A stretch of DNA of 64,000 nucleotides, taken from contig JAWPMV010000004.1 in the NCBI GenBank assembly GCA_033391075.1, positions 182,642-246,641 of the forward strand. The letters run 5' to 3'. The notes below the pieces were generated by a model, which searched no databases, had not been told where the DNA came from, and saw only the letters and a program-made list of their open reading frames with translations. Positions 9,501 through 25,601 of the stretch are shown here, piece by piece. Numbering within the stretch: the stretch's first letter is position 1; each line of letters opens with the position of its first letter. The position numbers and the translations under genes are program-made. Origin of the DNA: Bacteroidia bacterium (GTDB lineage Bacteria > Bacteroidota > Bacteroidia > J057).

Positions 9501-9537
9501 GGAGGAAGCCTGTTTAAAATCGGGCTTCCTCTTTCTT
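9501..9537. terminator. hairpin at convergent gene ends (putative bidirectional terminator)
   Basis: GAGGAAGCC (9502-9510) / GGCTTCCTC (9523-9531) followed by TTTCTT. It overlaps the last codons of the minus-strand kinase gene. Confidence 0.5.
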
Positions 9538-12500
9538 AAAGATTTCTTTTTCCAGGCGAATACAAGTTCCCTGACTTTCTTGGCTCTCAATATGGAGTTG
9601 AGCCTCCATTTCTTTTGCTCTGCTTCGCATATTATTTAAGCCATTGACCCGTTTAAGATCCTTCTCATGGAAACCTTTTCCATTATCAATAAGTGAAAGG
9701 AGCAGCTTTTGGTCCTTCCTGGCTACCCGAATAGAAACTTTGCTACAATCTGCATACTTCAGGATATTATTCAGGGCCTCCTTACAAATGAGGAGCAAAT
9801 GCCTTTTGGTAGTTAAAGTCAAACTTTCCTCTTCATCTCCTTGCAGCTGATTATCAAAGTGAAATTCGATATCCGTGTGTTCGAAGAGGGAACTGGCAAA
9901 ATCTCTGATCCGATCCAGGGTAGCATGCAAACTATCGTGTCTGGGGTCAAGGGTCCAAATAAAATCCCGGATTCCAGAGCCTAATTCCTGCAGGTTTTCT
10001 TCCATTTTCTGAAGGTACTCCTGCAAGTCAGGATTATCCTGAGCACTTCTTTTACTTAAGCCCGTGTAGAGCGATAATTTTGTCAAATTGTTTCCCGCCT
10101 CATCATGAAAATCCTGAGAGGTTCTGGCTCTCAATTGTTCCCTTTCTTCAACTTTGATTCTTTCAATTCGGGCAAGCGTCCTCATTTCCTGACGGACTTC
10201 TTGGGTTCGGTAGGAAATAAAGAGGAAAATGGCTCCCAGAAAACAAAGTGCATAGAGGGCATAGGCCCACCAGCTTTTCCAGGGTGGGGGAGAAATATGG
10301 ATTTGTAGTTCCTTAGCCTCCTCGTTCCAAAGTCCATCATTGTTGGAGGCTTTAACTCGGAAAGTATAAGTTCCCGGAGCTAAATTGGGATAATCTGCAA
10401 AGCGCCTCTTTCCACTATATACCCAGTCTCTATCTACTCCGACCAACTGATAAGCGAATTGATTTTTTTCTGCTTTGGTGTATTCCAGGGCAGCAAATTC
10501 GAAGGAGAGGAAATCCTGATCATAGCTTAGCTTCACTTCATCTGTAACCCGGATTGATTGCGGCAAATGAAAAGCTGATTGATTCTCGGGATTGGGATCT
10601 ACCGGCACTTCTTGATTAAAAAGCTTTATTCCTGTTATCTGGAGTTTGGGTAATTGTTTATTGAGTTTCAGGCTATCGGGATGGAAATAAACCAGCCCAT
10701 GAGTCCCTCCAAAAAACATTTGTCCATTTTGGGCTTTAAAGTAGGCAAACTGATTAAACTCCAGGTTGGACAATCCATCTTCGATCCCAAAATTACGTGT
10801 CTTGAATTCACCCTCTTTCCAACTGGTTCGGGAGATTCCATTGTTTGTGCTTAGCCATAGATTTCCCTCTTCATCCTCGAGTATCCCATAAATCACATCA
10901 TTGGGTAGACCATCTTTTCGAAAAAAAGAACGGAAAACTCCTTCTTTTTCCATGAGGCATAAACCATTTGCCGTTCCTATCCACAATTGACCTGCCTGAT
11001 TTTCATGAAGGCTGAGGATCATGTCATTGCTAAGGCTACCGGGAAGGTTCCCTTTGGAATCATAGGTCGTGAAGGTTCCTTTTTCCGGATCCATTTTGCA
11101 CAATCCTCCCCCGGCAGTGCCAATCCAGAATCTGCCCATCCGATCTTCCAGTATACTGTAAACAAAGGGATGAGGTAATCCTGTACTATCTTCCGGATTA
11201 TGAAGATAATGCTTAAAAGTACCGCTTATCGGGTCGAATAAATTAAGGCCGCCGAGAGCCGTTCCCACCCAATACCTGCCCTTACTATCTTCATAAAATG
11301 TGTAGACCGTATTGGCACTCAAACTTTCGGGATCTTTATCATCGTGGGTATAGTGTTCAAAGCTTAATTTCCCAGATCCTTCTACTATGACTTTGGCGAA
11401 ACCTCCCCTGCGAGTGGTCAGCCACATCTGATCATTCCTGTCCCGGCAAACATTTAACAAATAATCTGTCCCTAGTTCCTGCTCCATATGGTAGCAAGTA
11501 AGGTCTCCGGGTATCTCATCCCAGCTATTAAAAATGCTCAATCCTCCTACCGTGGCTACCCATAGTTTTCCTTCTTTATCCTGATTGATTCCCAATATTT
11601 TATTATTGCAGAGCTGCCTCTGAGAACTTTCGAAGCTTATTTTCCCAAAAAAGGGACTATTTATAGAGGTTTTATTGATCCCGTAGCTTGTACCCAGTAA
11701 GAGATTCCCGGATTCATCGCCCATAATGGCATTGGTGCGATTATGAGATAAAGAGGATAGAACATTGGGATCATGACTACTGCGATTGAGGATGTGGGCT
11801 CCTTCAGTTTCCAATCGCTCAATATCTCCAAAATTCAATCCTTCTGCTGTGCCAATCCAAAAGGTTCCGTATTTATCCAGAAAGAGGGAGGTGATTGAGC
11901 TGCTTAGAAGTCCTTGTTCAGCAGCATTCTCTTTCTGCAAATACTTTTCAATCCTGAATTTCCCATTGCTGTCTTCGACAACTAATAACAATCCGATACT
12001 AGTCCCTATCCAATATCTCTGAGAGCTCTCAGCTAATATGCAGGATGTAAAGTAAATCTGGTCTTCTCTCAGAAATTCTGAAGTAAAGTTGAGGGCTTCC
12101 AGTTTTTCATTTTCCAGATCAAATACAGCCAATCCATTATTATGACCGAGTAAAAAACGTCCCTCTTTGAGGGGACTCATACTCAGGATGTTTCTCGCAA
12201 AAAAATTGCGGGAAGTGCCCGGTTCATGTGGCCAGCTCTTGATTTGATAGGTATGAGTATTCAGGATTGAAAGACCATAATCAGTTCCAATCAGGAGTAA
12301 AGAATCCTGATGGAGATATAAAGACCTGACACCATCATGGGCCAGACTTCCGTAGGGATTTCCAGCTTCAGGCAGGAAGTTGAGAAATTGCTCTGTTTTT
12401 CTGTCCCATTTACTCAATCCTCCGCCAAAGGTCCCGATCCAAAGATTCTTCTCTCTATCTTCTAGTACGGTCCAAATGTAATTGCTCTTCAGACTTTTGG

Positions 12501-12753
12501 GATTGCCTGGTTCATGGAAAAAGGAGGTGAATTCGTATCCGTCATATCGGTTCAGTCCATCTTGGGTGCCTATCCAAAGATAACCGTAAGAGTCTTTGAG
12601 AAAACAGCTTACGTTTCCCTGGGAAAGCCCCTCTTCTACGGAAATGTGTTCAAATTCGAGCTTTCTATTTTGGGAATAGATATTTTCAACATCTATGAAT
12701 AGGAGAAAGCATGCAAAAAGTAGTAAGTAAATTCTGGTGGGGGAAAGCGGCAT
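9514..12753 (-). CDS. sensor histidine kinase with periplasmic two-component-regulator propeller repeats + Y_Y_Y domain (HisKA_3/NarX class)
   Basis: Many repeats of the ...G.LWIGT..GL..(F/Y)D type and a Y_Y_Y-like segment (YAYQLVGVDRDWVY...PGTYTFRVKA). One TM helix (WWAYALYALCFLGAIFLFISY), an H-box (SQDFHDEAGNNLTKL) and a HATPase_c region (ALNNILKYA...IDNGKGF). Confidence 0.9.
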   Translation of the reverse strand: MPLSPTRIYLLLFACFLLFIDVENIYSQNRKLEFEHISVEEGLSQGNVSCFLKDSYGYLWIGTQDGLNRYDGYEFTSFFHEPGNPKSLKSNYIWTVLEDREKNLWIGTFGGGLSKWDRKTEQFLNFLPEAGNPYGSLAHDGVRSLYLHQDSLLLIGTDYGLSILNTHTYQIKSWPHEPGTSRNFFARNILSMSPLKEGRFLLGHNNGLAVFDLENEKLEALNFTSEFLREDQIYFTSCILAESSQRYWIGTSIGLLLVVEDSNGKFRIEKYLQKENAAEQGLLSSSITSLFLDKYGTFWIGTAEGLNFGDIERLETEGAHILNRSSHDPNVLSSLSHNRTNAIMGDESGNLLLGTSYGINKTSINSPFFGKISFESSQRQLCNNKILGINQDKEGKLWVATVGGLSIFNSWDEIPGDLTCYHMEQELGTDYLLNVCRDRNDQMWLTTRRGGFAKVIVEGSGKLSFEHYTHDDKDPESLSANTVYTFYEDSKGRYWVGTALGGLNLFDPISGTFKHYLHNPEDSTGLPHPFVYSILEDRMGRFWIGTAGGGLCKMDPEKGTFTTYDSKGNLPGSLSNDMILSLHENQAGQLWIGTANGLCLMEKEGVFRSFFRKDGLPNDVIYGILEDEEGNLWLSTNNGISRTSWKEGEFKTRNFGIEDGLSNLEFNQFAYFKAQNGQMFFGGTHGLVYFHPDSLKLNKQLPKLQITGIKLFNQEVPVDPNPENQSAFHLPQSIRVTDEVKLSYDQDFLSFEFAALEYTKAEKNQFAYQLVGVDRDWVYSGKRRFADYPNLAPGTYTFRVKASNNDGLWNEEAKELQIHISPPPWKSWWAYALYALCFLGAIFLFISYRTQEVRQEMRTLARIERIKVEEREQLRARTSQDFHDEAGNNLTKLSLYTGLSKRSAQDNPDLQEYLQKMEENLQELGSGIRDFIWTLDPRHDSLHATLDRIRDFASSLFEHTDIEFHFDNQLQGDEEESLTLTTKRHLLLICKEALNNILKYADCSKVSIRVARKDQKLLLSLIDNGKGFHEKDLKRVNGLNNMRSRAKEMEAQLHIESQESQGTCIRLEKEIFKKEEARF

Positions 12754-12842: not shown

Positions 12843-12980
12843 TTACCAATTCAAGTACCTAAACAAGCCCGCTTCAAATCCAAAAAGACTAATTACCAGG
12901 TATAGTAAGGAGAAGTACCAAATACCCATCAGGACATTTGCCCATTTTGTTCCGATTTTTTCTAAAAGGTAAGTGTACAT
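12843..12980 (-). CDS. unannotated 45-aa single-TM ORF, candidate DltX-like acyl-shuttle peptide
   Basis: Hand translation gives MYTYLLEKIGTKWANVLMGIWYFSLLYLVISLFGFEAGLFRYLNW*. The ATG (12978-12980) lies 4 nt after the MBOAT stop (12985-12987), same strand. One hydrophobic helix and a short C-terminal tail with Tyr. It is below the 60-aa cutoff of the ORF track. Confidence 0.45.
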   Translation of the reverse strand: MYTYLLEKIGTKWANVLMGIWYFSLLYLVISLFGFEAGLFRYLNW

Positions 12981-12984
12981 AGCC

Positions 12985-14118
12985 TTAGTTTATGAAGAAT
13001 AGAATTTTATAGGTTTGCCAGGAAGCCGCCATATCCACTTCATTGGTCAGGATAAAACTGAGCATGACGAAATGCAGGGTAATTCCTATTCCCAGGATTT
13101 TTTGTACAAGAGGAATCTTTGCGATCGCCTCCTGCATGGGCGTATTATTGTAGCGATGCCAGAGGTTGATGGCTATAGCATGCATAATTCCCCAGATCAA
13201 ATAGCGCAAGGATATTTCATGCCATCCTGCCAATACAAGCATAGACATAATGATGCTGATACGGGAATTTCTCGTCATACCGAGGAAGGGATAGAAAACA
13301 TAATCCCGACACCAATCTGAAAGAGAAATATGCCAGCGATTCCAGAAATCAGCAATATTTGTGGCTTTGAAAGGAGAATTGAAGTTCTCCATGACTTTAA
13401 AACCAAAGAGTAAAGACAAACCTATCGCTATATCTGAGTAGCCTGCAAACTGTACATAGGCATTGGCAGCGAATCGAAACATCTTCAGATAGGTCGCTAT
13501 CCAAAGATGACTGTCTTCCAGTCCCAGGGCAAAATTATTGAGTTTATAACTGAACAGGTAATTGCCAAGCACAACTATTTTTACAAAGCCATAAAGAATT
13601 CTTTCCAATCCCTGAGAAAACAGCAAATTATCCCATCGCCTTCTTTTTATATCTCTTAAGAAGGGTTGAAAGCGATTGATAGGGCCGATAAGGATGGTTG
13701 GAAGAAAGAACAGATAGCACATATATTCCCATAGGCTGTGCTTACTCAGACTTGTTTTCTTATACACCTCCAGAGCATAATGGATTTGGCGAAAGGAATA
13801 ATAGGAAAGCCCCAAAGGTAAAATGCCTGTTTCTCCCAATCCAAAAATGGCTGCATAATCCATCTTAAAAAAGAGAAAGATGCAACTCAATTGGATAACA
13901 ACTACCAAAGTCGCTGTGCTCAAAGAAGGAATATGTCGTAAAAGGTAGAAATTAAGAAGGCTGGTGCTCGCTAAAATCAGGAGGGAAGCTGGCGAATAAA
14001 TTCCCAACAAAATAGCAGTTGCCAGGATGAGGGGTGCCAGCTGCCATTTCTCTGGCAACAACCAGGCAGGGCCCAGCAACACAAAACTTACTCCCAATAT
14101 GATCAGCAGTATCTCCAT
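12985..14118 (-). CDS. MBOAT-family membrane O-acyltransferase (DltB/AlgI-like)
   Basis: Multi-TM protein with FWNRWHISLSDWCRDYVFYP (MBOAT catalytic His motif) and LAGWHEIS (second conserved His). At 377 aa it is closer to DltB than to AlgI in size. An ATGA overlap links it to the upstream gene. Confidence 0.9.
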   Translation of the reverse strand: MEILLIILGVSFVLLGPAWLLPEKWQLAPLILATAILLGIYSPASLLILASTSLLNFYLLRHIPSLSTATLVVVIQLSCIFLFFKMDYAAIFGLGETGILPLGLSYYSFRQIHYALEVYKKTSLSKHSLWEYMCYLFFLPTILIGPINRFQPFLRDIKRRRWDNLLFSQGLERILYGFVKIVVLGNYLFSYKLNNFALGLEDSHLWIATYLKMFRFAANAYVQFAGYSDIAIGLSLLFGFKVMENFNSPFKATNIADFWNRWHISLSDWCRDYVFYPFLGMTRNSRISIIMSMLVLAGWHEISLRYLIWGIMHAIAINLWHRYNNTPMQEAIAKIPLVQKILGIGITLHFVMLSFILTNEVDMAASWQTYKILFFIN

Positions 14119-15053
14119 CAGTTCTTTCTTTCTGCTACAATTTTATCTATCAGCCATTCAGTATATATCTCTTGTCCCGCTGTGGTCAAATGGCTGTAAT
14201 CCCAGAAGTATTTATACCCTAGCGGAGATCCTGTATAAGGCCAATATTCTATCCCTAATTGTTCTTGGTATTGCTCCAGTAAAATGGCCTGTTCCTGCAT
14301 AAGTTTTGGAGGGTAGATTTGATGCATCAGGGCCGCTGGTTGAGGGACATCCACAAATACTATTTTGATCCCCTGATCTCTGAGCATTTGTAATTCTTCG
14401 TGGGCATAGCCTAGTTCCTCAAAAGATCTGCTAATTCGTTTCTGTGGAACATAGGAAAGTGTATCCAGGTGCTGGATGGAGGGTCCTGCTTTAGCAACAC
14501 AGTCCATTTTTTGCTTATACCCCAGCATGCCTAGCATTTCTTTAAAAAACCTTCGATTTAGCCAGGACCTCATTTCCAGTTGGCCTTTTAGGCTGTGAGC
14601 TTTAAGGGTACTATCCGCTTTATATTTGGCTCCTACGTTTTCCAGATTTACGACAGCCAATTCTGTTTGGATGCAAACCAAATCAGGGTTTAGCGCAGCT
14701 ATTTTGGGAAGAAGCTGATGAGTAGTTACCATTCTTTTAAAGGGCTCACCATTGCCATACATCTTACTCAAGAGGATGGGAGATTTTTTCAGCCTGTTTG
14801 AATAAGCATAAATTTCATCCGGACATTGAATCCCATACTTAGCCAGGGAAGAACCAACAAAAATCACTTTCAAATCTCTTTTTTTTGAACTTTGAAAGTC
14901 CTCCTTCATTTCCTCATACAGTCCATCAAATTCCAGTTTGTCTGTATTGGGAATATTATGGCAATACACATGGACGATGATCTGGAGCAGGAGAAATAAT
15001 CCTCCTACCCAGGCCCATACATATAAAGGAGTTGATTTTGCTCTCACACTCAT
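14118..15053 (-). CDS. membrane-anchored SGNH/DltD-like protein (candidate terminal acyltransferase)
   Basis: N-terminal TM anchor, a block-I-like IFVGSSLAKYG, and a C-terminal FWDYSHLTTAG (D-x-x-H as in SGNH/DltD/AlgX-type enzymes). It sits between the carrier-ligase and MBOAT genes with ATGA overlaps on both sides. Confidence 0.55.
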   Translation of the reverse strand: MSVRAKSTPLYVWAWVGGLFLLLQIIVHVYCHNIPNTDKLEFDGLYEEMKEDFQSSKKRDLKVIFVGSSLAKYGIQCPDEIYAYSNRLKKSPILLSKMYGNGEPFKRMVTTHQLLPKIAALNPDLVCIQTELAVVNLENVGAKYKADSTLKAHSLKGQLEMRSWLNRRFFKEMLGMLGYKQKMDCVAKAGPSIQHLDTLSYVPQKRISRSFEELGYAHEELQMLRDQGIKIVFVDVPQPAALMHQIYPPKLMQEQAILLEQYQEQLGIEYWPYTGSPLGYKYFWDYSHLTTAGQEIYTEWLIDKIVAERKN

Positions 15054-16912
15054 GCCAGTTTTTCCAGGAGAATGTTCTCGGTTGCTTTAAGACTATTCAT
15101 GATCATCATTTCAGCCGTAGAAAAACGGACCTTGAATTTCTTCTCCAGGGAGTTTACATATTTCAAATGTGCCAAAGAATCCCATCCTTCAAGCGTCATA
15201 GAGGTGTCTTGCAGACTGATTTCTGTTACAGAAATATTAAAAGCTTCTGCTGCAGAAGCTTTAATCGCCTCAACATATCCCTCCTGCTCAGCTGAATTCT
15301 GAGAAATACTCGATCCAGCCTTATGTTCTTCTATCAATTTCCTGACCTCATTCACCTGAATTTTACCGGAGAGGGTACGAGGAAGGCTTTTGAGGAAAAA
15401 GCTTTCTTTGGGAATCTGATTTGCTTCTAATAGAGGACGGAGGTAGCTGATCAAATCCATTTTTTCCAGCTTTTGCCCGGCCTTCAAAACGATGGCAGTA
15501 GCCAACATTTCTCCATGATGCTCATCCGGCAAAGCGAAACAGACACTTTCAAATACTGCCTCATGGCTATTGATCATTTCTGTTACCTGCTCAGGATAAA
15601 TGTTGATCCCTCCTGTATTGATGGTATTTTTCTTTCTTCCAGTAATGCTGAAGAAGCCTTCTTCATCTTTTGCTGCAATATCCCCGGTAAATAGCCAGCC
15701 GTCTTGTAAAACCTCAGCAGTTGCTTCCGGATTATTGAGATAACCAACAAATATATGATCGCCTTTTATCATGAGATTTCCCGACTCATTTACTGCCGCT
15801 TCTGTCCCATCTTCCGTCAGGATTTTCACTTCACAATCAACAGGAACTCCAACTGTTCCGATTTTCTTTGGATATCCGGCTGCTCCACAGTATAAAGAAC
15901 CTGCGACGGTTTCGGTCATGCCATATACATTGGCAATTTCAACCTTGAATTTATCCTGAAAGTCCTCCCAGAATTTCTTTTCCAGTTTGGCAGCCGTTGA
16001 AATAATCAGTTTGAAATCTTCCGTTTGAAAACTTTCCTCATAATTCTCTGAGTACTTGTCCATAAAAGATAAGATGGTCGGAACGGTCATAAAATGAGTG
16101 GCCCGGAGTTTATAAATCGCATCGAAGAGCTCTGTCATCCGAGACATATCAAAGCTGAAAGGTCTCAATAATGTTGCATGCGAAAAGAGGGTAAGTAAGG
16201 GGCCCTGTATAGATCCATCTACATGGTAGAGGGTAAGGATATTGAGCAGTCGACTGTTTTCATCAAAAGCATATACTTTCTTGAGTGTCTTCAGGTGGGC
16301 GAATAAATTCCCATGAGAAATCATCACTCCTTTGGGATCAGAGGTAGATCCGCTGGTGAAAAGGACAAAAGAAAGATCGGAAGGCTCAATTTTTTCTAAA
16401 GGTTCAACTAGACCTGAAATGCTATCCATAAGTGCGGGGAAGCTATGATTATCCACCGGCGCCTCTGTTTTTTTCTTCTTCAGGAGTTTCTTAAAAAGTT
16501 TGCCTTTCTTCTGGGCGGATTTTTTCACGGGCAGACTAAAAAAGGAAGGATTTTCTTCAATTTTCCTTTCTGCGAATAAAGCTTCATCCATAACGGCTCC
16601 ATTCGCTGCTGCCTGAAGGATGATTCCTTTTGCTCTTTGGGCAGGAACCCGAGGATCGATAAAAATGCTCACAATTCCATATCGAAGAAAAGCCAGGAAG
16701 AATAGACTCGCATAATATTCATCCTCTACGGAGAGGACAATCCGATCTCCTTTTTTCAATCCTCTTTGCTGGAAAAGCTGGTGAAGTTTATCTATGTCTG
16801 TGAGTAAGGTCTGATAGGTATATTTTTTACCGCCTATTTGTGCAAAGACTTTTTTGCTTAACTGAGGTCCTTGCAGGCTTTCAAATAGATCAGTGATATT
16901 GTTGTATGGCAT
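15050..16912 (-). CDS. ANL-family adenylating enzyme fused to a C-terminal acyl/peptidyl carrier domain (DltA-DltC-like fusion)
   Basis: AMP-binding motifs LFTSGSTSDPKG, VYGMTETVAG, WLFTGDIA, GRKKNTINTGGINIYPEQV and LSGKI. The C-terminal ~80 aa carries LEGWDSLAHL (phosphopantetheine-type Ser codon at 15176-15178). Start chosen at MPYNNITDLF (16912), because the track start at 17035 would overlap the upstream gene by 146 nt. Confidence 0.85.
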   Translation of the reverse strand: MPYNNITDLFESLQGPQLSKKVFAQIGGKKYTYQTLLTDIDKLHQLFQQRGLKKGDRIVLSVEDEYYASLFFLAFLRYGIVSIFIDPRVPAQRAKGIILQAAANGAVMDEALFAERKIEENPSFFSLPVKKSAQKKGKLFKKLLKKKKTEAPVDNHSFPALMDSISGLVEPLEKIEPSDLSFVLFTSGSTSDPKGVMISHGNLFAHLKTLKKVYAFDENSRLLNILTLYHVDGSIQGPLLTLFSHATLLRPFSFDMSRMTELFDAIYKLRATHFMTVPTILSFMDKYSENYEESFQTEDFKLIISTAAKLEKKFWEDFQDKFKVEIANVYGMTETVAGSLYCGAAGYPKKIGTVGVPVDCEVKILTEDGTEAAVNESGNLMIKGDHIFVGYLNNPEATAEVLQDGWLFTGDIAAKDEEGFFSITGRKKNTINTGGINIYPEQVTEMINSHEAVFESVCFALPDEHHGEMLATAIVLKAGQKLEKMDLISYLRPLLEANQIPKESFFLKSLPRTLSGKIQVNEVRKLIEEHKAGSSISQNSAEQEGYVEAIKASAAEAFNISVTEISLQDTSMTLEGWDSLAHLKYVNSLEKKFKVRFSTAEMMIMNSLKATENILLEKLA

Positions 16913-19799
16913 GTAATAATTCTTTTTCTGATAGTTTTCCGTTTTCTGAATAGGGGAGCTGTGGGAGGAAATAGATTCGACGGGGAAGCTTGCGCTCTCC
17001 CAATTGGGTCCGGAGATTCTGTTGCAATTCTGCACGAAAGGAAGCGGGGTCCATGTCAGGATTTCTCAGGACTATACAGGCTGCAATTTTCTCTGCATCT
17101 TCTTCCTCATACGCATAGCAAATGACGTCTTCAACTTGCTCCTGTGTGCCAATTGCATCCTGGATTTCTTTGAGATAAACGACTTCTCCGCTGGAGATTT
17201 TTACAATATTTCTGATCCGGCCCAGGAGTTGAATATTACCAGCTTCTGTATAGCGAGCCCGGTCATGGGTATAAAACCATCCGTCCCGGATTACTTCTGC
17301 TGTTTTCTCCGGCATAGCCAGATAGCCCTGCATAATATTCTCGCTGTAGATACGAAGTTCTCCTTCTTCTCCTTTAGCTACTGGCTTTCCTGATTCATCG
17401 ACGATTTGTGCTATACAATCAATGGGTTTTCCAATGCTATCGTTGAGTAGGTTTTCTTCCAAAGGATTTTGGGAAATGCAAATCCCGGTGGTTTCCGTTA
17501 AGCCATAATAGTTGAGAATATCTTTGTCAAAAGCTGATTTAAAATCCTTTCTCAGAGATTGACTCAAGGCATTTCCGGTACAAATCAGAGATCGAATGCT
17601 ATCCAGTTGACCTCTGATTTTTTCGGCATACTTGGCAAATTGATGAAGTAAGGCAGGATTGCTACTTAAGACTGTAGCTTTACTCTCTTCTACTGCCTCA
17701 GCGATTCCGAATAAATTACCCATCGTGTTTGACCCGGGAAGCACTACGCTTGCTCCTACATGTAAGGGTGCTATAACGGTATTTCGCAAACCACTCATAC
17801 TTTCCAGACCTCCAATCGCTAAAAGCCGATCTTCTTCTTCCCATTGAAAAGTCTCTGTGATCAGTCTGCCACTTCTGAAAAGATTTCCATGCGAAAGCTG
17901 AACACCTTTGGGCATACCGGTTGATCCCGAAGTGAATAAAATGACCGCTTTATCTTTAGACTGAACCTCTACTTCTGATAATTCTTCATCCTCAATTTCT
18001 TCCAGCCAATCTTCGAAGTACAAAGCATCTTCAGCCTGCTCTTCTTCATCAAAAAGAATGATTGAACTTTCCCCAAAAAATGATCCTTTCTCCTGGTAAA
18101 GCTTTTCAGTCAGGAAAACCCGTTTTGCATCTGTCAATTTCAGGATGTGTTCGATTGTTTCCTGAGGCAAATGCCCGCCAATCGGAGCAACAACAATCCC
18201 TAATTGCATACAAGCCCAGTATAGCATGACTGCTTCCGTATGAATATTGCCTGCAATAATGACATTATCGCCTTTTTTCAAACCAGAGGCATGCAAACCA
18301 AGCATGATCATTTCGACTACTTCTTCGCAGTCTTCATAGGTAAATTCACTTTCATCCTCCAGAGAGATGAGTGCATGTTTTTCCGGGAAGGCTTTGACAG
18401 CATGTTGCCACAAAGACTTTAGATTTTGCTGTGTTTCCGGAACCAAATACTCCTGAGACATCAGGTGGTATTGTAAACGGGTAGCTTCTCTGGAAACGGG
18501 CAATACCTGTAGCATCCCCAGCTTTTCAAGTTTTTCCAGCTCTGCATATAGCTCTTCCTTACTACAGCCGATGCGTTCCTGCATCTCTTTCACCGAATAA
18601 GCATGCGTGGCCAAATAGGTGATTTGAGTTGCAAGTAAGGAAAGCTCGAAATTATCCAGGGCTTTGATTCGCTCAATATAAATAGGATGTCTATCCAGCA
18701 AATAGCCTACTGATCCATTGAGATAGTCGTGGTCTACTTCTACTTTTTGGTGATGCAAGTCAATATTCAGAAGCAGATTGATGATGACAAAACAATCCTC
18801 TATCGAATCCAGGTCTTTCATAGAGAAAGCTGACAAAGAATCGCCTTCCCATGCTTTTGGTAGAACTGCTATCAAAGAATTATAATCGGTTTGATCCGGG
18901 GTCGATATCAAAGGGATTTCAGCTAGTGCATGGATTTCATTTGCTGCGAACATATAGGGTTCGGAGAAGACATATCCTTTCCAATTGCTTTCATCCGGAA
19001 AAAGGGAAAAGGCACGATCATAATCCATTCCATGCATCTGCTTGCAGCCTCTTTCAAACCAGGGCTCCGGCTCATTATTGGTGAGATGGACATGAGGGAA
19101 AATAATAGCGCCCTCATCCTTAACCACCCGCATCAATTCCTTTAATAGTAAGCCTTGATTAAAGCGATGGAAGGTATCCAAACCGACTGAGAATGCGATG
19201 CTATTATCAGCCAATGGCAAAGGCTCATCCAGATCGCAAAACATTACACGGATGTTATCTCTTTCCTGTAACCAGAAGTTGTAGCCTTTATAGCCCAGAA
19301 CGTCCTTATTCCCTTCCCAGGTGGTAAGAATTTCATTCTCCGGAAAGAGACCCGCTAATAGGGCAGTGATCCATCCCGAACGGTCCCAGAGATTAAGGAT
19401 AGTATCTCCTTTTTTTACAGTGGCTCTGAGTTTTTTAAAGAAAGGATACAAAGCTTTGGAAGCTTCATTGAAGGGTTGAAAGCAGGCGTACATATCATAA
19501 TTGGGACGCCGGGCTTTTTGTTGCAGAAATATTTCATACTGCAGTTGATTTCCCAGGAGCTTTTCCAGTTTTTGGAATTTATTTCCCAAAACCTGGCCGG
19601 GAAACATATCAGATTCATTAAAAAAATAGAGCTTGTCAATGATGGGAACAAAGTGCGGATGGCTCTTCCCTTGCAGGAAGCTGCGCTTTTTTCCATCAAT
19701 CGATTCCGATTGATGTGAATATAGGGCGTTCAACATACAGTCAATTCTAAAACGTTCAATGGCATGAGAAAAGAGCGGCAAGCAGCAAGGTATATCCAA
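16890..19799 (-). CDS. multidomain protein: methyltransferase-fold-like N-terminus + wHTH-like linker + ANL adenylation domain
   Basis: C-terminal ~500 aa has ILFTSGSTGMPKG, YYGLTETTG, WFYTHDRA (TGD changed to THD), GRIRNIVKISSGEVV and ENGKLSEKEL. N-terminal residues ~100-300 resemble a Rossmann methyltransferase (GDTILNLWDRSGW, DNSIAFSVGLDTFHRF, LMRVVKDEGAIIF) with a degenerate Gly-rich loop. The start is uncertain: TTG at 19799 or ATG at 19736. Confidence 0.8.
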   Translation of the reverse strand: MDIPCCLPLFSHAIERFRIDCMLNALYSHQSESIDGKKRSFLQGKSHPHFVPIIDKLYFFNESDMFPGQVLGNKFQKLEKLLGNQLQYEIFLQQKARRPNYDMYACFQPFNEASKALYPFFKKLRATVKKGDTILNLWDRSGWITALLAGLFPENEILTTWEGNKDVLGYKGYNFWLQERDNIRVMFCDLDEPLPLADNSIAFSVGLDTFHRFNQGLLLKELMRVVKDEGAIIFPHVHLTNNEPEPWFERGCKQMHGMDYDRAFSLFPDESNWKGYVFSEPYMFAANEIHALAEIPLISTPDQTDYNSLIAVLPKAWEGDSLSAFSMKDLDSIEDCFVIINLLLNIDLHHQKVEVDHDYLNGSVGYLLDRHPIYIERIKALDNFELSLLATQITYLATHAYSVKEMQERIGCSKEELYAELEKLEKLGMLQVLPVSREATRLQYHLMSQEYLVPETQQNLKSLWQHAVKAFPEKHALISLEDESEFTYEDCEEVVEMIMLGLHASGLKKGDNVIIAGNIHTEAVMLYWACMQLGIVVAPIGGHLPQETIEHILKLTDAKRVFLTEKLYQEKGSFFGESSIILFDEEEQAEDALYFEDWLEEIEDEELSEVEVQSKDKAVILFTSGSTGMPKGVQLSHGNLFRSGRLITETFQWEEEDRLLAIGGLESMSGLRNTVIAPLHVGASVVLPGSNTMGNLFGIAEAVEESKATVLSSNPALLHQFAKYAEKIRGQLDSIRSLICTGNALSQSLRKDFKSAFDKDILNYYGLTETTGICISQNPLEENLLNDSIGKPIDCIAQIVDESGKPVAKGEEGELRIYSENIMQGYLAMPEKTAEVIRDGWFYTHDRARYTEAGNIQLLGRIRNIVKISSGEVVYLKEIQDAIGTQEQVEDVICYAYEEEDAEKIAACIVLRNPDMDPASFRAELQQNLRTQLGERKLPRRIYFLPQLPYSENGKLSEKELLHAIQQYH

Positions 19800-19927
19800 A
19801 CACTATACCCTTCTGTTTCTGAGAAGAAGGGGAGGAAATGTCTTTGGAATATCTCTACAATAAAGTAATTGACAAGCGCGGAGTAAACATGCTGCGCCTT
19901 GCTGGTAGAAAATCCTGTATGGATGGT

Positions 19928-20605
19928 TTAATTTGTAGGCTTGGCCCAGTAAACACGGGTTTCAAAAGTCCCTCCGGGAATTACCCGATCCAATTTCAGC
20001 CAGCTTTGTGCCTCAAAAACTTCCTTATGGACGGGCATATAGTAGATGATCTGAATAGCCCGTGGATTTCTTTGAAGAGAGTCTTCAATATTTCCCAAAA
20101 CCGTATTCAAAACTTTGCCGGGAAAAGGATGAAAGAGGTAAAAGTGAGAGAAACGATCTATGTCATGAAAATCTCGGGCATCAGACTCATATATTGAGAG
20201 ATGTTGGCTTTCCAGAAGAAAGAAATTCTTTTTAGCAATACTTACGAGAAAGGGTGAAACTTCAACTCCCGCAACTTCCTCGAACCCAAATTCATCCAGA
20301 ATAAGCATGGCTGCCCCTTTGCCCGATCCATAATCAAGAATACGATCACTCGGTTTAATCTTTAGTTGAGTAAAGGTATTCCTCAAGTCCTTTCGCTCGC
20401 TAGGTGCATAATAGATTTCTTCTCCGAATTCCTCCAGGCCCAGGGTCTTATTGTCTACAGAAGGTGTAATATCGAGGCCCGCAAATTTCTCCCGAAGAAT
20501 CCTGAGATTCCTGCTGATTTTTGCAAGTAGATTTTGGGAACTATAATGGTCCAGGGCCTTATTCATACCATTTCTTGAATACTCAATCAATGAAAAAAAA
20601 TCCAA
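19928..20605 (-). CDS. class I SAM-dependent methyltransferase
   Basis: Motif I ILDYGSGKGAAMLIL followed by an acidic post-I segment (GVEVS). Compact 225-aa Rossmann-type layout. Confidence 0.8.
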   Translation of the reverse strand: MDFFSLIEYSRNGMNKALDHYSSQNLLAKISRNLRILREKFAGLDITPSVDNKTLGLEEFGEEIYYAPSERKDLRNTFTQLKIKPSDRILDYGSGKGAAMLILDEFGFEEVAGVEVSPFLVSIAKKNFFLLESQHLSIYESDARDFHDIDRFSHFYLFHPFPGKVLNTVLGNIEDSLQRNPRAIQIIYYMPVHKEVFEAQSWLKLDRVIPGGTFETRVYWAKPTN

Positions 20606-20822: not shown

Positions 20823-21539
20823 CTAGGCCTGAGCTTTTAAATACTCTATGACTGCTTTTTTATAACTCGCACCTATCGGGATTTCTATATCTCCAATCTC
20901 TATATCATGATGAGTAAAGGCTGAAATCATCGAACTGTTTACGATGTAGGAGCGATGAATACGAATGAAGGCCTCCGGTAAGAGTTTTTCATAGCGACTG
21001 ATGGTGTCCTTGGAAATGATGTTTTTGCCGGTTGTGTGTATACGCACATAATCCTTGATACTTTCGATATAAAGAATTTGATCCAGATAAACTTTTACAT
21101 GCTTTTTATCGGCATACACATAAATAGATCCACGTGGTTTTTCCAGTCCTTCGCTGCTTTCTTTTACTTCCTCTTTCTGATTTAATTTCAGGTATTTATT
21201 GACAGACTTAAAGAAACGTCCGAAAGAGATGGGTTTCAATAAATAATCCAGGACTTCAATCTCATAACCTTCAATGGCATATTCTCTGAATGCAGTTGTA
21301 AGGATTACCTGAGGAGGATTAGAAAGAGAGCGAATAAATTCAATCCCATTCATTTGAGGCATTTCCACATCCAGAAAAACAAGGTCAACCGCTTCTCGGT
21401 TCAGGACTTCAAATGCTTTCATACTATCCTGACAACTTGCCACAAGATGAAGTTGAGGGATCTGTTTTACATAATCCTCGATCACCTCAGCTGCCAAAGG
21501 TTCATCATCTACAATCAGGCATTTTATGGGGCTCTTCAT
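20823..21539 (-). CDS. LytTR-family response regulator
   Basis: REC domain (CLIVDDEPLA..., DLVFLDVEMPQMNGI) plus a LytTR DNA-binding domain (IESIKDYVRIHT..., FIRIHRSYIVN). Confidence 0.9.
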   Translation of the reverse strand: MKSPIKCLIVDDEPLAAEVIEDYVKQIPQLHLVASCQDSMKAFEVLNREAVDLVFLDVEMPQMNGIEFIRSLSNPPQVILTTAFREYAIEGYEIEVLDYLLKPISFGRFFKSVNKYLKLNQKEEVKESSEGLEKPRGSIYVYADKKHVKVYLDQILYIESIKDYVRIHTTGKNIISKDTISRYEKLLPEAFIRIHRSYIVNSSMISAFTHHDIEIGDIEIPIGASYKKAVIEYLKAQA

Positions 21540-21548
21540 ATCTCGTGT

Positions 21549-22631
21549 TTAAAGGTCTATATGTAGGATTACGCTATAGGAATCTTTCTGGTCTTCGATG
21601 ATCATCCTATGCCGTTCCGGATATTGCAAACTCAGCTGCCGTTTCAAGTTTTTTATACCAATTCCTTTACCTCCTGAGTCTCTGGAAGAGAGAATTTTTG
21701 ATTTGGAATTGAAAACCCGGAAAGAAAGCAGCTTATCAGTAAGCGTCAGATTTATCCGGATTAAAGGATCACCATCTTTGGTAGTCATCACATATTTGAA
21801 AGCGTTTTCTACAAGACTGATCAAAAGGAGGGGAGCAATTTGCACTTCGGTATCCTCTATCTTCTGGTCCAGTAAGATCATGAGGCTATCCTTATACCGC
21901 AAACTCTGAAGATCTGCATAACTCTCGATCAACTCCCATTCTTTTATAATAGGTACCCTTGGCTGATTGCATTCATAGATGGTATAGTCGAGGATCTCCG
22001 ACAACTTCATAACCATATCCGCCGTTTGCTCTGATCCACTTTTCGCTAATGCATAAATATTGTTGAGGGTATTGAAAAGGAAGTGGGGATTCATTTGTGC
22101 CTTGAGGAAGTTGAGTTCTGCCATGCTTTTTTCACGCTCAAGGCTGATGAGTTTATTCTCCTGCTGAAATCTTTCTTTCATCATCTTCAGTAGAAAGAGA
22201 AGTACGGCTGGCAAATAAACAGATACCATATATACCTTGATCAGATAGACAGCGTCTGTGATCACTTCCCAGACCGATTCCTCATAACTTTCAAAATTGA
22301 TGAGGGGTTCAGCGATATGGATAATGGAAAGTCGGGCCAATGCAGAGAGTCCATAGGCGATCAATGCCAGACTGACAAAAAATAGCAACCAGCGACCCTT
22401 ATACAATAGTTTCGGAATGAGATAATAGATCAAGGAATAGGCAGCCAGCATCTGAACCGGCAGAATACTAAGCATATTGATCAGATTATCTTTAAAGCTA
22501 CTTCCTAACAGGCTGCCATGATATGCCAGTAAAAGGATTACAAGAACCCAAAAACCCAGATGATAGATAAACCTGGGGATGGAATCAATCCTACTGATAT
22601 TGGAGTTATGAAGTGATAGCGAGTAAGCCAT
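21549..22631 (-). CDS. LytS/YehU-like sensor histidine kinase
   Basis: Multi-TM N-terminus, a His_kinase motif (AQMNPHFLFNTLNNIYAL) and a C-terminal ATPase-like region. It is adjacent to its LytTR response regulator. Confidence 0.85.
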   Translation of the reverse strand: MAYSLSLHNSNISRIDSIPRFIYHLGFWVLVILLLAYHGSLLGSSFKDNLINMLSILPVQMLAAYSLIYYLIPKLLYKGRWLLFFVSLALIAYGLSALARLSIIHIAEPLINFESYEESVWEVITDAVYLIKVYMVSVYLPAVLLFLLKMMKERFQQENKLISLEREKSMAELNFLKAQMNPHFLFNTLNNIYALAKSGSEQTADMVMKLSEILDYTIYECNQPRVPIIKEWELIESYADLQSLRYKDSLMILLDQKIEDTEVQIAPLLLISLVENAFKYVMTTKDGDPLIRINLTLTDKLLSFRVFNSKSKILSSRDSGGKGIGIKNLKRQLSLQYPERHRMIIEDQKDSYSVILHIDL

Positions 22632-22846: not shown

Positions 22847-24178
22847 ATGAAAAATCAGGTCATCTTTCTACTGCTGGGCATCTTCTGTAATGCTCTCCTT
22901 GCTCAAAACAATTGTGGCAAACTCCTCAAAGCGGTAGAAGAAAATAATATCTCCGCCGTCCGCAGCCTGCTGAATAGTGCAGATGTAGATTGTGTGTATG
23001 AGAAAAGTAATCCTCGTACAGCTCTGGTCATGGCAGCCCGGGAAGGACATAAAGAAATAGTCGAACTCCTTATTAGCAAAGGAGCAAAGGTGAGCTTTCA
23101 TCACAAACATGATGAAACGCCTTTGATGGCAGCATCCGGAAGTGGAATGGGGGCGATGGTTGATCTTATGATCAAAAAAGGAGCAGATGTAAATGAAGAG
23201 GAGAGAGGAGACGGAACAGCTCTGATCCTCGCTGCTCGACACGGCCACCTATCTATCGTCAAAAAACTTCTAAACCTGGGAGCAAAAATCAATGTCCTTA
23301 GCACAGGAGATGGGAGCGCACTCATCAATGCAGTCGCCGGAGGACATCCCCAGGTAGTCAAATACCTGCTCGAAAATGGAGCCAATCCCAATCTCGGAAA
23401 TATCGCAGATGGTTATCCGCTGGAGATTGCGCTCAATAAAGGAGATGATGAGATGATTCGCTTGCTGACGGCTAAAGGAGGTAGCAATAAAGGAGAATAT
23501 GATCGTTACGATGACGATGACGAGTATGATGATGAGGATGACGAAGATGATTATGAATATGAGGATGACGAACAAGACGAAGAAGGATTGTTGAATGCCT
23601 CATCACAAGATCAGTTGGAATGGGTGAAAAAGATGGTAGAAGGGGGTGCGGATGTGAATAAAAAGTATTACGGAGACGGCACACCTTTGATTATAGCTGT
23701 GAGAATTGGAAATATGGAGGTCGTGAAATACCTGGTCGAACAGGGAGCAGATGTGGATTTGGATATTCGGGGAGACGGAAGTCCCCTGATCGTTGCAGCA
23801 GCTCGGGGAGATCAGGCCATCATTTCCTACCTCTTATCAAAGGGGGCAGATATAGATAAAGGAGTAAAAGGAGATGGAAATCCCCTCATTGCTGCGGTGG
23901 AATATGGACATGAAGATATAGTGGTATATCTCCTGGATAAAGGAGCCGATGTTAACTATGAAATAACCGGTGATGAAACGCCTCTGATCAGAGCTTGTGC
24001 AGAAGGGAATCTGGAATTGGTAAAGCTTCTGGTTGCCAGAGGGGCAGATGTAAACAAGTCTTCCCGAGAAGTCTACAACCTCAATTCTCGTTTATATACT
24101 CCTCTTAAAGTAGCACGCAAAGGAGGATACTCAGATATCGTAGCTTATTTACTAGACAAAGGCGCTAAAAATGATTAA
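22847..24178 (+). CDS. secreted ankyrin-repeat protein with internal poly-acidic linker
   Basis: Signal peptide. Two blocks of ankyrin repeats (G.TPL..A...GH..IV..LL..GADVN) are separated by EYDRYDDDDEYDDEDDEDDYEYEDDEQDEE. Confidence 0.9.
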   Translation: MKNQVIFLLLGIFCNALLAQNNCGKLLKAVEENNISAVRSLLNSADVDCVYEKSNPRTALVMAAREGHKEIVELLISKGAKVSFHHKHDETPLMAASGSGMGAMVDLMIKKGADVNEEERGDGTALILAARHGHLSIVKKLLNLGAKINVLSTGDGSALINAVAGGHPQVVKYLLENGANPNLGNIADGYPLEIALNKGDDEMIRLLTAKGGSNKGEYDRYDDDDEYDDEDDEDDYEYEDDEQDEEGLLNASSQDQLEWVKKMVEGGADVNKKYYGDGTPLIIAVRIGNMEVVKYLVEQGADVDLDIRGDGSPLIVAAARGDQAIISYLLSKGADIDKGVKGDGNPLIAAVEYGHEDIVVYLLDKGADVNYEITGDETPLIRACAEGNLELVKLLVARGADVNKSSREVYNLNSRLYTPLKVARKGGYSDIVAYLLDKGAKND

Positions 24179-25601
24179 ACAACAGAAAACTGCCACTTTC
24201 CTTCTTGTCTTCCTGCTCTTTATGGGGCAGGTGTATAGCCAGAAAAATCACCAACTGGCAAAAGAACACGCACAGGCGCTCTTTAAAGCATTCATACAAT
24301 CTGAAGATAGTCCTCCCGGTATTTCAGTTGCTGTGAGAAAGGGAGATCAAACGATTTATGCAGCAGGTTTTGGGATTGCAAAATCGGAAGACCAGGCAGC
24401 CGTCACGCCAAATACCCGCTTTCGCGCAGCTTCTGTCTCCAAAATGATGACCACTACTGCCATGGCAAAATTGTACCAGGAGGGAAAACTCGATTTTGAC
24501 AAAGCCGTGAGTTCCTATGTTCCCCAATTCCCCAAAAAGGCACATAGTTTTAGTGTAGCTCAATTATCGGGACATATTGCCGGCTTTCCACACTATTCCT
24601 TTAGCGATAAGATTCAAAAACGCTTTTACCCTTCTGTTTCCGAATCCCTGGGAACCTTTTCCCATCAAAAGCTGCTATTTGAACCCGGGACCAAATACAA
24701 ATATTCCACCCATGGATATACTTTGCTCTCTGCGGTCATAGAAGGAGCTTCACAGATGGAATTTCTGGATTACCTCGATCAGGAAATTTTTGAGCCTCTT
24801 GGGATGCAATCTTCTGGTCCCGATCTCAGGCATGCCATTCACAAGGACATGAGCGAACTTTTTTACATCAATAAATCTGGGAAAGTATCACAGGTAAAGA
24901 AGCCGCAAGACCCTAGCTATAAGTGGGGCGGAGGAGGAATGACTTCTACGCCCAGCGATCTGGTAAAATTGGGAAGTGCCTATTATTCAGGTTTCTTCAG
25001 TTCCCAAACCGTAGATCGGATGTTTCAGACTCAGGCATTGAATGATGGCAAGGAAACCTGGGTGGGAATCGGATGGCGGACCAATGTAGACCCCTTTGGG
25101 AGAAAAGTTCATGAACATGCCGGTTCGATGGAAGGAACCCGCAGCGTAATCTGCATTTTCCCCGAAGAAAAAATGAGTGTATCCATCATGGGAAATGCGA
25201 GCAGGCCCCATATGATAGAAGAAAGTGCCCATGTGCTGGCATCTCTGTTTTTGTCAGAAGAAGAAGCGGATCTAAGCCTTAAAGGAAAAGGAGAAGTGGA
25301 CTTTGTTCGTCGAGGAAGCAAAAAACAAGTCAAAGGAAAGGGACAGATTCAGCTGGAAGGAGCAAAAGGAATTTTATCGATAAAGAATGGAGATGAGGAG
25401 GAGGTAAACTACCAACTCATCAAACTAAGAGACAAAGACCTTTATGGCTTGATCACCGAATACGGCATCCTTTTTTGCCAGATCAAAGTAGAGAATGGGA
25501 TCTTGGAAGGAGGAGCGATCCTTTATGGAAGCATGAGGCCTACAAAAGTGGGATTCGACGAAGCTTTCATTTCCTTTTCCGGAGATTTCACACAAGAATA
25601 G
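24171..25601 (+). CDS. serine hydrolase, beta-lactamase/PBP4* (class C-like) family
   Basis: Signal peptide, SxxK motif (RAASVSKMMT), and a YSTHGY (YxN-like) region. Its start overlaps the ankyrin gene end by 8 nt. Confidence 0.85.
   Translation: MIKQQKTATFLLVFLLFMGQVYSQKNHQLAKEHAQALFKAFIQSEDSPPGISVAVRKGDQTIYAAGFGIAKSEDQAAVTPNTRFRAASVSKMMTTTAMAKLYQEGKLDFDKAVSSYVPQFPKKAHSFSVAQLSGHIAGFPHYSFSDKIQKRFYPSVSESLGTFSHQKLLFEPGTKYKYSTHGYTLLSAVIEGASQMEFLDYLDQEIFEPLGMQSSGPDLRHAIHKDMSELFYINKSGKVSQVKKPQDPSYKWGGGGMTSTPSDLVKLGSAYYSGFFSSQTVDRMFQTQALNDGKETWVGIGWRTNVDPFGRKVHEHAGSMEGTRSVICIFPEEKMSVSIMGNASRPHMIEESAHVLASLFLSEEEADLSLKGKGEVDFVRRGSKKQVKGKGQIQLEGAKGILSIKNGDEEEVNYQLIKLRDKDLYGLITEYGILFCQIKVENGILEGGAILYGSMRPTKVGFDEAFISFSGDFTQE

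Follow-up and report, generated by a model that had tools for sequence, protein, structure and literature searches.

What do two adenylating enzymes, a carrier domain, a membrane-bound O-acyltransferase (MBOAT), an SGNH-fold protein, and a 45-residue membrane protein do together in a bacterium of the Bacteroidota? The locus that raises this question lies in a 64,000-nucleotide stretch of DNA (the window, to which all positions below refer) from the Bacteroidia bacterium metagenome-assembled genome (MAG) GCA_033391075.1, contig JAWPMV010000004.1, positions 182,642 to 246,641 of the forward strand. On the minus strand, positions 12843 to 19799 hold five co-directional, tightly packed open reading frames (ORFs). 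We found that this operon is likely to be a self-contained Dlt-type trans-membrane acyl relay in a diderm and that its donor is probably not D-alanine. The assignment of the host to the Bacteroidota fits both a gene for a type IX secretion system sorting-domain protein in the window and the NCBI names (Bacteroidia MAG).

The likeness is to the Dlt system of Firmicutes, in which an adenylating enzyme, a phosphopantetheinyl carrier, a short MBOAT with a catalytic His, a single-pass microprotein, and an anchored SGNH protein with Ser, Asp, and His act in that order. DltB passes D-alanine to an invariant Tyr in the C-terminal hexapeptide FxYxxF of DltX, and DltX then passes it to DltD (PMC12148441). 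In L. plantarum, DltX is 49 aa long and ends in FIYNEF (PMC13653941). An earlier reading of this DNA made from its letters (the sequence-only reading) had proposed a Dlt-type machine that exports an activated acyl or aminoacyl group. We found support for this proposal in the SGNH fold of one product, in an invariant carrier serine, and in a microprotein with a shuttle motif. The features concerned are the following, with the two adenylating enzymes of the ANL superfamily called ANL1 and ANL2 and the fusion of ANL2 to its carrier called ANL-CP.

12843-12980, minus strand: 45-aa DltX-like membrane microprotein (ORF translation, hydropathy; PGAP R8P61_34890)
12846-12863, minus strand: C-terminal hexapeptide F40-R-Y42-L-N-W45 of the microprotein (Tyr42 codon, 12855-12857)
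12985-14118, minus strand: 377-aa short (DltB-sized) MBOAT acyltransferase (Pfam MBOAT, 1.8e-23)
13330-13332, minus strand: MBOAT His263 in WNRWHISLS
13219-13221, minus strand: MBOAT His300 in GWHE
14118-15053, minus strand: 311-aa membrane-anchored protein, predicted SGNH-fold transferase or hydrolase (AlphaFold2 and Foldseek)
14847-14855, minus strand: putative triad Ser69 of the SGNH protein (G67-S-S69)
14190-14201, minus strand: putative triad Asp285/His288 of the SGNH protein
15050-16912, minus strand: 620-aa ANL-CP; ANL2 is residues 1 to 535, 15308-16912 (Pfam AMP-binding, 1.6e-59, and AMP-binding_C)
16328-16360, minus strand: ANL2 A3 motif FTSGSTSDPKG
16214-16228, minus strand: ANL2 A4 motif Y-H-V-D-G
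15053-15280, minus strand: carrier (phosphopantetheine-binding) domain, residues ~545 to 620 (PP-binding)
15176-15178, minus strand: carrier attachment Ser579 in GWDSLAHL
16890-19799, minus strand: 969-aa ORF with a TTG start; the likely start is the ATG at 19734-19736 (~948 aa)
19020-19502, minus strand: methyltransferase-fold domain, residues ~100 to 260 (degenerate motif I ILNLWDRSG at 19374-19400)
18495-18647, minus strand: winged-helix segment, residues ~385 to 435 (winged helix-turn-helix and MarR-like matches)
16893-18437, minus strand: ANL1 domain, residues 455 to 969 (A3 at 17904-17936, MSGLRN at 17781-17798)

All the ORFs of the sequence-only reading were recovered at their coordinates on the minus strand, and so were the motifs that it had quoted: GWDSLAHL (Ser579), IFVGSS (G67 to S69), DYSHL (D285 and H288), RWHISLS (His263), and GWHE (His300). 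It had described the genes as joined by ATGA or short overlaps, and this is true of the three upstream junctions. The 969-aa gene overlaps the ANL-CP gene by 23 nt (16890-16912), the ANL-CP and 311-aa genes overlap in an ATGA (15050-15053), and the 311-aa and MBOAT genes share 1 nt of a TGATG at 14118. The MBOAT gene and the 45-aa ORF, however, are separated by a gap of 4 nt. The overlapping stop and start codons (translational coupling) argue for a stoichiometric complex. The NCBI annotation (PGAP) calls four of the genes exactly as we do (45, 377, 311, and 620 aa) and names the 45-aa and 311-aa products "hypothetical protein," the 377-aa product "MBOAT family O-acyltransferase," and the 620-aa product "AMP-binding protein." For the 969-aa ORF, we prefer the in-frame ATG start because the orthologs are called at 932 to 952 aa.

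The microprotein has a single transmembrane (TM) helix at about residues 16 to 34, predicted from hydropathy, with basic residues (lysines) N-terminal of it. Its last six residues, FRYLNW, are in register with the published DltX shuttle motif FxYxxF and place the Tyr at position -4. We compared 13 loci, the window and 12 others, and found an ORF of 45 to 47 aa downstream of the MBOAT gene in all of them, directly in 12 and past an SGNH gene in the other (L002). W21 and Y42 are invariant in this set, and the Tyr is always at -4. The C-termini are FRYLNW, FKYLGF, FRYMQW, FNYVYY, FRYLNY, LRYANM, FAYLEI, FKYLAL, LRYLNY, FTYLNL, FRYLNR, FRYLEW, and FKYIGF. They follow the pattern [F/L]-x-Y-x-x-X, with a variable last residue (W, F, Y, L, I, M, or R). 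In its size, predicted topology, motif, register, and gene context, the microprotein resembles DltX.

The MBOAT has a single match in NCBIfam, the LTA_dltB equivalog, at 183.5 bits and under the cut-off of 375. Its best and only PDB matches are the DltB structures 6bug and 8jem (E, ~5e-31). His300 aligns with the catalytic His336 of DltB, and WNRWH-I-SLS aligns with WNRWH-M-SLS. The orthologs (n = 13) are 364 to 389 aa long, and H113, H263, and H300 are invariant among them. At the MBOAT's C-terminus, we did not find the F-x-Y-x-x-F shuttle motif in the 10 loci inspected, the window included. Judged by these comparisons, the protein is DltB-like and not a DltB ortholog.

The 311-aa protein was placed by its predicted structure. 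Searches of PDB with its sequence and profile gave nothing significant, so that the fold comparison alone was informative, and it had no match in our local copy of Pfam, DltD (PF04914) included; its relatives likewise had no DltD match. Word-indexed homolog searches returned just 4, 12, and 5 proteins, and the family was reached by an exhaustive HMMER search of representatives, which gave 158 at an E value of ≤1e-3. An earlier model built from four close homologs was unusable (pLDDT, 48) and was replaced by one built from a 77-sequence alignment (AlphaFold2 pLDDT, 91.6; pTM, 0.88). This model has an N-terminal TM helix at about residues 9 to 33 followed by an alpha/beta domain. All 27 Foldseek matches in PDB at an E value of ≤1e-3 were SGNH hydrolases or designed scaffolds of that fold. 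Among the structural matches were 4iyj (E, 9e-6), putative acylhydrolases, TesA, and acetylxylan esterases, and PatB (7tjb) ranked 33rd. In the 77-sequence alignment, the residues G67, S69, and G293 do not vary, and at least 90% of the sequences have D285 and H288; these residues correspond to G-x-S of block I and D-x-x-H of block V. The relatives have weak matches to DUF1574 and GDSL_2. The earlier prediction of an SGNH fold was thus borne out by the structure prediction, with top Foldseek matches that are all SGNH hydrolases. On the model, the 311-aa protein is an SGNH-fold enzyme that lies outside the DltD family. Since basic residues precede its N-terminal TM anchor, its catalytic domain is predicted to be periplasmic. 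Some members of the family (P0002 and L087:4382-5341) carry a faint precomputed match to PF27429, "LB_356," the description of which could not be read. PF27429 may already define this family as a domain of unknown function.

The sequence-only reading had described the 620-aa product as a fused adenylation domain and carrier protein, the counterpart of DltA and DltC. The fusion is real, but its halves resemble an acyl-CoA ligase and an acyl carrier protein (ACP) and not DltA and DltC. The best NCBIfam match of ANL2 is a long-chain-fatty-acid--CoA ligase subfamily (293 bits, below the cut-off), its best PDB matches are oxalyl- and malonyl-CoA synthetases, and DltA is not among the top 25 NCBIfam models listed for it. 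For the carrier, PP-binding scored 20.2 bits in the whole protein (cut-off, 20.8) and 24.6 bits when the C-terminal 76 residues were searched alone, and 12 of 13 carrier orthologs match it. The G, W, and S of GWxS are invariant in the 13 orthologs, Ser579 included, so the predicted conservation of the carrier serine held. A carrier profile matched ACPs in PDB (best, 2lml; E, 1.5e-10; motif, WDSLSH), and DltC was not among the 60 PDB matches listed.

Both ANL1 and ANL2 show the conserved ANL motifs (the A3 P-loop, A5, A7, the A8 hinge, and the A10 catalytic Lys). In ANL2, the A4 residues H-x-D-G are invariant in 13 orthologs. MAFFT places the invariant Asp opposite the amino-binding Asp of the adenylation domain of LgrA, a nonribosomal peptide synthetase (NRPS). 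By the convention for acyl-CoA ligases, the His of ANL2 corresponds to Phe234 of PheA, and the Asp would then fall at position 236 and not at Asp235. The position of the Asp relative to Asp235 is thus ambiguous by one residue, which makes the donor class read from the A4 motif ambiguous. From these sequence comparisons, D-alanine appears unlikely as the donor, and an amine-bearing donor is possible.

ANL1 matches Pfam AMP-binding (5e-69) and AMP-binding_C and has no carrier domain. Its best PDB matches are LgrA NRPS adenylation domains (3e-57), and it scored 150.8 and 157.9 bits with the DltA models TIGR01734 and NF003417 (cut-offs, 559.85 and 476). The A4-region motif M-S-G-L-R-N is conserved in ANL1, and an F-D-x-S motif is absent from both ANL1 and ANL2. 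The earlier description of a methyltransferase-fold-like N terminus plus an ANL domain fared less well in its first half. Methyltransf_11 matched the N-terminal domain in 4 of 5 orthologs (best E, 1.1e-5), the PDB match to the S-adenosylmethionine (SAM) methyltransferase 3dh0 was weak (E, 0.026), and the SAM-binding loop is degenerate: in ILNLWDRSG, the glycines of E/DxGxGxG are replaced by W, D, and R, and these replacements are kept among the orthologs. The domain is rare, and we saw it only in Bacteroidota. ANL1 occurs in two forms, one with the N-terminal domain (932 to 952 aa) and one without it (520 to 533 aa, as in L085 and L087), so that this domain is optional within the ANL1 family.

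We ran the neighborhood survey that the sequence-only reading had suggested, and the module is conserved in 13 loci, the window among them. Scanning genomes with the MBOAT yielded 80 loci, with the module in only the closest seven (40 to 60% identity). The Chitinophagales, Bacteroidia, Ekhidna, and Aquimarina loci have five of the five module genes. Further loci came from five distant representatives of the SGNH family, a Sediminitomix member, and a 75%-identical relative. ANL1, ANL-CP, SGNH, and MBOAT genes stand together in 6 of these 7; in the seventh (L088), the contig ends within the ORF that takes the place of ANL1, and this ORF has no Pfam record. An ORF of 45 to 47 aa follows the MBOAT gene in these loci wherever the contig reaches. 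The gene order varies, with the SGNH gene before or after the MBOAT gene, and the ANL-CP gene is adjacent and translationally coupled in 13 of 13 loci. The module is present in at least four other Bacteroidota lineages, and Sediminitomix flava and Flavilitoribacter nigricans ATCC 23147 are among the cultured organisms that carry it. That all five genes have homologs in conserved synteny is far beyond chance. The domain identities, the SGNH fold, the conservation of catalytic residues, the synteny, and the microprotein motif are all computed results.

Three loci, from Bdellovibrionales, Nitrosomonas, and Paraglaciecola (L005:8078-13223, L006:1151-6379, and L007:7178-12324), have ANL-CP, Sulfotransfer_3, MBOAT, microprotein, and SGNH genes and no second ANL gene. 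The Sulfotransfer_3 gene lies between the ANL-CP and MBOAT genes in L006 and L007 and after the microprotein gene in L005. The SGNH partner is GDSL_2-like in Nitrosomonas and Paraglaciecola (L006 and L007); in Bdellovibrionales it belongs to the 311-aa family, and its gene is on the opposite strand. When the Bacteroidota SGNH family was compared with the proteobacterial GDSL_2-like proteins by hhalign, only block V aligned, with a probability of 5%, and we therefore treat the proteobacterial partner as swapped and not as orthologous. The sulfotransferase suggests a sulfated donor or a sulfated acceptor in these variants. ANL1, or the sulfotransferase in its place, is best read as an enzyme that tailors or supplies the donor. 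Sulfotransferases modify hydroxyls or amines, groups that can be acylated by ANL enzymes. Speculatively, then, the carrier-bound unit may itself carry a hydroxyl or an amine.

Other arrangements were seen beside these. One distant version of the module has a radical SAM/SPASM gene after that for the microprotein (L085:9219-10163 and L086), which may encode a further tailoring enzyme. In a Candidatus Omnitrophica MAG (L076:4762-11385), a gene for a 766-aa ANL protein and two SGNH genes related to the 311-aa family adjoin a gene for a long MBOAT. The ANL protein has about 250 extra C-terminal residues with no Pfam carrier match, and the long MBOAT itself ends in FIYFKF. This locus may represent a system intermediate between the Dlt and acetyl types, linked to a carrier or an ANL and with its shuttle fused. 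In the Firmicute Exiguobacterium (L050:8103-11092, L058:8079-11092, and L064:8079-11092), an ANL gene lies directly upstream of a gene for an MBOAT of about 488 aa, which is probably another noncanonical ANL-MBOAT pairing. The Exiguobacterium ANL (L050 and L058) had been considered as a DltA reference and was dropped, since its A4 motif NYSYGL and the long MBOATs are not those of canonical Dlt.

We propose the following relay. ANL2 in the cytoplasm would adenylate a carboxylic acid and load it as a thioester onto the phosphopantetheine of its own carrier (Ser579). ANL1 would supply or tailor the donor, for example, by activating another acid for attachment to the unit held on the carrier. The MBOAT would then dock the loaded carrier. 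The acyl group would travel along the MBOAT tunnel and, by the action of His300, end up on Tyr42 of the microprotein, within its periplasmic FRYLNW. The acyl-Tyr tail would swing into the active site of the anchored periplasmic SGNH enzyme and acylate Ser69. Finally, an envelope molecule on the outer face of the inner membrane would receive the group from this enzyme on a hydroxyl (or amine). By analogy with Dlt and PatAB, we infer which way the acyl group flows, that acyl-Tyr and acyl-Ser intermediates are formed, that the topology is periplasmic, and what ANL1 does. The flanking genes differ between loci, which argues that the module is self-contained. Since no acceptor-synthesis genes are linked to it, a ubiquitous envelope molecule such as lipopolysaccharide (LPS) or lipid A, peptidoglycan, or a membrane lipid is favored as the acceptor. 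The sequence-only reading had expected a different or further-modified donor from the DltA-DltC fusion, the extra adenylating enzyme, and the methyltransferase modules.

The proposed relay differs from Dlt in several respects. The present host is a diderm of the Bacteroidota, in which teichoic acids are not expected. Its adenylating enzyme is acyl-CoA-ligase-like and fused to the carrier, and the carrier is ACP-like, not DltC-like. The second ANL is conserved and in this lineage has an N-terminal domain with a methyltransferase-fold part and a winged helix. The SGNH protein comes from another, uncharacterized family (faint PF27429 and weak DUF1574 matches) and not from Pfam DltD. The microprotein gene follows the MBOAT gene, whereas in Dlt it comes first in the operon.

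Systems with some of these parts are known in Gram-negative bacteria. The dlt loci of Dickeya and Pectobacterium and the dra locus of Bordetella are true dltABCD orthologs in which DltA and DltC are separate. They share with the present module a Dlt-type machinery in a diderm without teichoic acid; the module differs from them in its two ANLs, its fused carrier, and genes that score well below the equivalog thresholds. The AlmEFG system of Vibrio cholerae uses a DltA-like ligase and a DltC-like carrier to place glycine on lipid A. AlmG is an LpxL-type acyltransferase that works on the cytoplasmic side, and AlmEFG has no MBOAT, microprotein, or SGNH partner. Its likeness to the present module is a ligase with a carrier in a Gram-negative bacterium, whereas the MBOAT, microprotein, and SGNH protein are found only in the latter. 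In Dickeya and Pectobacterium, dltXABCD is a Dlt-type machinery in diderms whose presumed target is LPS or some other molecule of the surface (PMC5541007). PatA/PatB, AlgI/AlgJ/AlgX, and WssH/WssI pair an MBOAT with a periplasmic SGNH protein and use an acyl-Tyr hexapeptide and an acyl-Ser intermediate (PMC12148441). In all known MBOAT/SGNH systems apart from Dlt, the motif lies on two extra MBOAT helices, and both a carrier protein and a microprotein like DltX are missing (PMC12148441). The Pat, Alg, and Wss systems are fed by acetyl-CoA and have the shuttle fused to the MBOAT, whereas the present module has a short MBOAT, a separate microprotein, and a carrier-fused ANL that is always linked. 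Full-text literature searches for systems resembling DltX, DltB, or Dlt and for clusters of carrier, MBOAT, and SGNH genes in Gram-negative bacteria found no description of this module. In these searches and in the loci examined, no orthologous cluster was tied to a characterized pathway, in line with the earlier proposal. By sequence, the module looks like a distant, previously undescribed cousin of Dlt.

Could the operon nonetheless be an orthologous dlt operon that carries out genuine D-alanylation of LPS or another anionic polymer, as has been proposed for dltXABCD of Dickeya and Pectobacterium and for dra of Bordetella? The component logic is shared, and dlt genes are known from a small number of Gram-negative bacteria (PMC5541007). 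The sub-threshold matches of ANL1 to DltA models also point this way, as does the invariant A4 Asp of ANL2 with its MAFFT alignment to an NRPS amino-binding Asp. However, the DltA models gave 151 to 158 bits against cut-offs of 476 to 560, DltA was outside the top 25 for ANL2, and the closest solved relatives are LgrA for ANL1 and, for ANL2, oxalyl- and malonyl-CoA ligases. The F-D-x-S motif at A4 is found in neither ANL, the DltB equivalog reached 183.5 of 375 bits, and the SGNH protein had no Pfam DltD match. An ACP-like, fused carrier and two ANLs, or a sulfotransferase, as conserved extras also speak against a dlt operon, and we consider it very unlikely. More improbable still is acetyl-CoA-dependent O-acetylation by an MBOAT/SGNH pair of the PatA/PatB, AlgI/J/X, or WssH/I kind, with the acyl-CoA ligase genes standing beside it unrelated. 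Such pairs are common in Gram-negative bacteria (PMC12148441), and most MBOAT relatives from genomes are long and AlgI-like with no adjacent ANL gene. The MBOAT here is short, though, and carries its motif on a separate microprotein, an arrangement so far specific to carrier-dependent Dlt (PMC12148441), and the 13 loci all have the ANL-CP gene adjacent and translationally coupled.

The operon could also belong to a cytoplasm-facing lipid-remodeling pathway or a small-molecule (lipopeptide or natural-product) pathway with no polymer acceptor. The ANLs and carrier would then build an acyl or N-acyl-amino-acid unit, to be attached to a membrane lipid by the MBOAT or set free by the SGNH protein acting as thioesterase or esterase. 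ANLs that resemble fatty- or organic-acid ligases or NRPS adenylation domains would suit this, as would the sub-threshold matches to Aas-type enzymes (acyl-ACP--phospholipid acyltransferase), the TesA-type thioesterases among the SGNH structural matches, and the lack of linked polymer-synthesis genes. Two ANLs with a tailoring enzyme (methyltransferase-like domain, sulfotransferase, or radical SAM neighbor) are also natural-product-like. Under such a pathway, however, the invariant Tyr at the shuttle position of the microprotein would have no role. The TM anchor of the SGNH protein and the basic residues before it predict a periplasmic catalytic domain, and the nearest relatives of the MBOAT are DltB proteins and not lysophospholipid acyltransferases. 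We regard this explanation as unlikely. A membrane lipid as the final acceptor at the periplasmic face is compatible with the proposed relay as well.

Several points weigh against the proposed relay itself. The evidence for it is computational throughout, and no component reaches the curated Dlt hidden Markov model thresholds. We found no match for the microprotein in Pfam, NCBIfam, or PDB by sequence or profile, and homology to DltX was undetected beyond the hexapeptide and the architecture. Among the structural matches of the SGNH model, DltD (7dxm) ranks low, at 48th (E, 5e-3). The contacts between the MBOAT, the microprotein, and the SGNH protein are assumed, and the Dlt paradigm does not account for the second ANL. 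Outside the module, the orthologous loci examined have no flanking genes in common, and none of the flanking genes was recognized as an acceptor-synthesis gene.

One further feature lies upstream of the operon.

19928-20605, minus strand: stand-alone class I methyltransferase-like gene, 225 aa from a TTG (weak methyltransferase matches, all below cut-off)

The sequence-only reading had noted this gene 128 nt upstream of the operon. The distance is correct, but the gene is not a conserved member of the module. Only the 75%-identical relative (L089/L090) has it beside the operon, and it is absent from the more distant loci L001 to L004, L081, L084, and L091. We rejected it as a part of the module on these grounds and treat it as a doubtful or lineage-specific neighbor. 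Two pairs of genes for a LytTR response regulator and a LytS-type His_kinase lie within 10 kb (20823-22631 and 29551-31405), one of them immediately upstream of the methyltransferase gene and the operon, and immediately downstream (9514-12753) is a gene for a 1079-aa histidine kinase of the Reg_prop/Y_Y_Y kind. The closest relative (L089) is the only one to have a LytTR pair again; there it lies about 3 kb from the module and about 2 kb from the methyltransferase gene, with three inserted genes between the pair and the methyltransferase gene. The orthologous loci examined have no Y_Y_Y kinase in their flanks. A functional link of these two-component systems to the operon was rejected, since the kinase does not recur and the LytTR pair does so only in the closest relative. 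A promoter scan was uninformative (20 sites, against 17.5 expected), and the sigma-70 consensus is not applicable to Bacteroidota. Between 12500 and 21000, we counted 16 terminator-like hairpins, against 8.0 ± 2.7 in shuffled sequence; they lie mostly within coding sequence, and none was obviously placed at the end of the operon (12843). Farther away, at 22847-25601, a beta-lactamase-family/serine hydrolase gene is overlapped at its start by a gene for a 443-aa protein that is nearly all ankyrin repeats (Ank_2, 6.9e-88). It is unusual for free-living bacteria to have ankyrin-rich proteins.

On the published view, Dlt alone among MBOAT/SGNH systems combines the pair with a carrier and a separate DltX microprotein, and it serves the D-alanylation of teichoic acids (PMC12148441). 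The present module has both hallmarks, yet its hosts are diderms, its ligases are unlike DltA, and it has a conserved tailoring enzyme. We put at about even the chance that it represents a second, widespread class of carrier-dependent MBOAT/microprotein/SGNH relay in diderms, which installs a tailored acyl group other than alanine on a probably ubiquitous envelope molecule. Such a class could range over Bacteroidota, Bdellovibrionota, and Beta- and Gammaproteobacteria, and its tailoring could yield a two-acid unit (two ANLs) or a sulfated unit. If this is true, Gram-negative envelopes carry an undescribed acyl modification that could plausibly affect surface charge, sensitivity to antimicrobial peptides or phages, or adhesion. 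The DltX-type acyl-Tyr shuttle would then be general beyond the D-alanylation of teichoic acids, and the sulfotransferase and two-ANL variants would be natural experiments in donor diversification. Because the module is present in cultured type strains, the question is directly testable.

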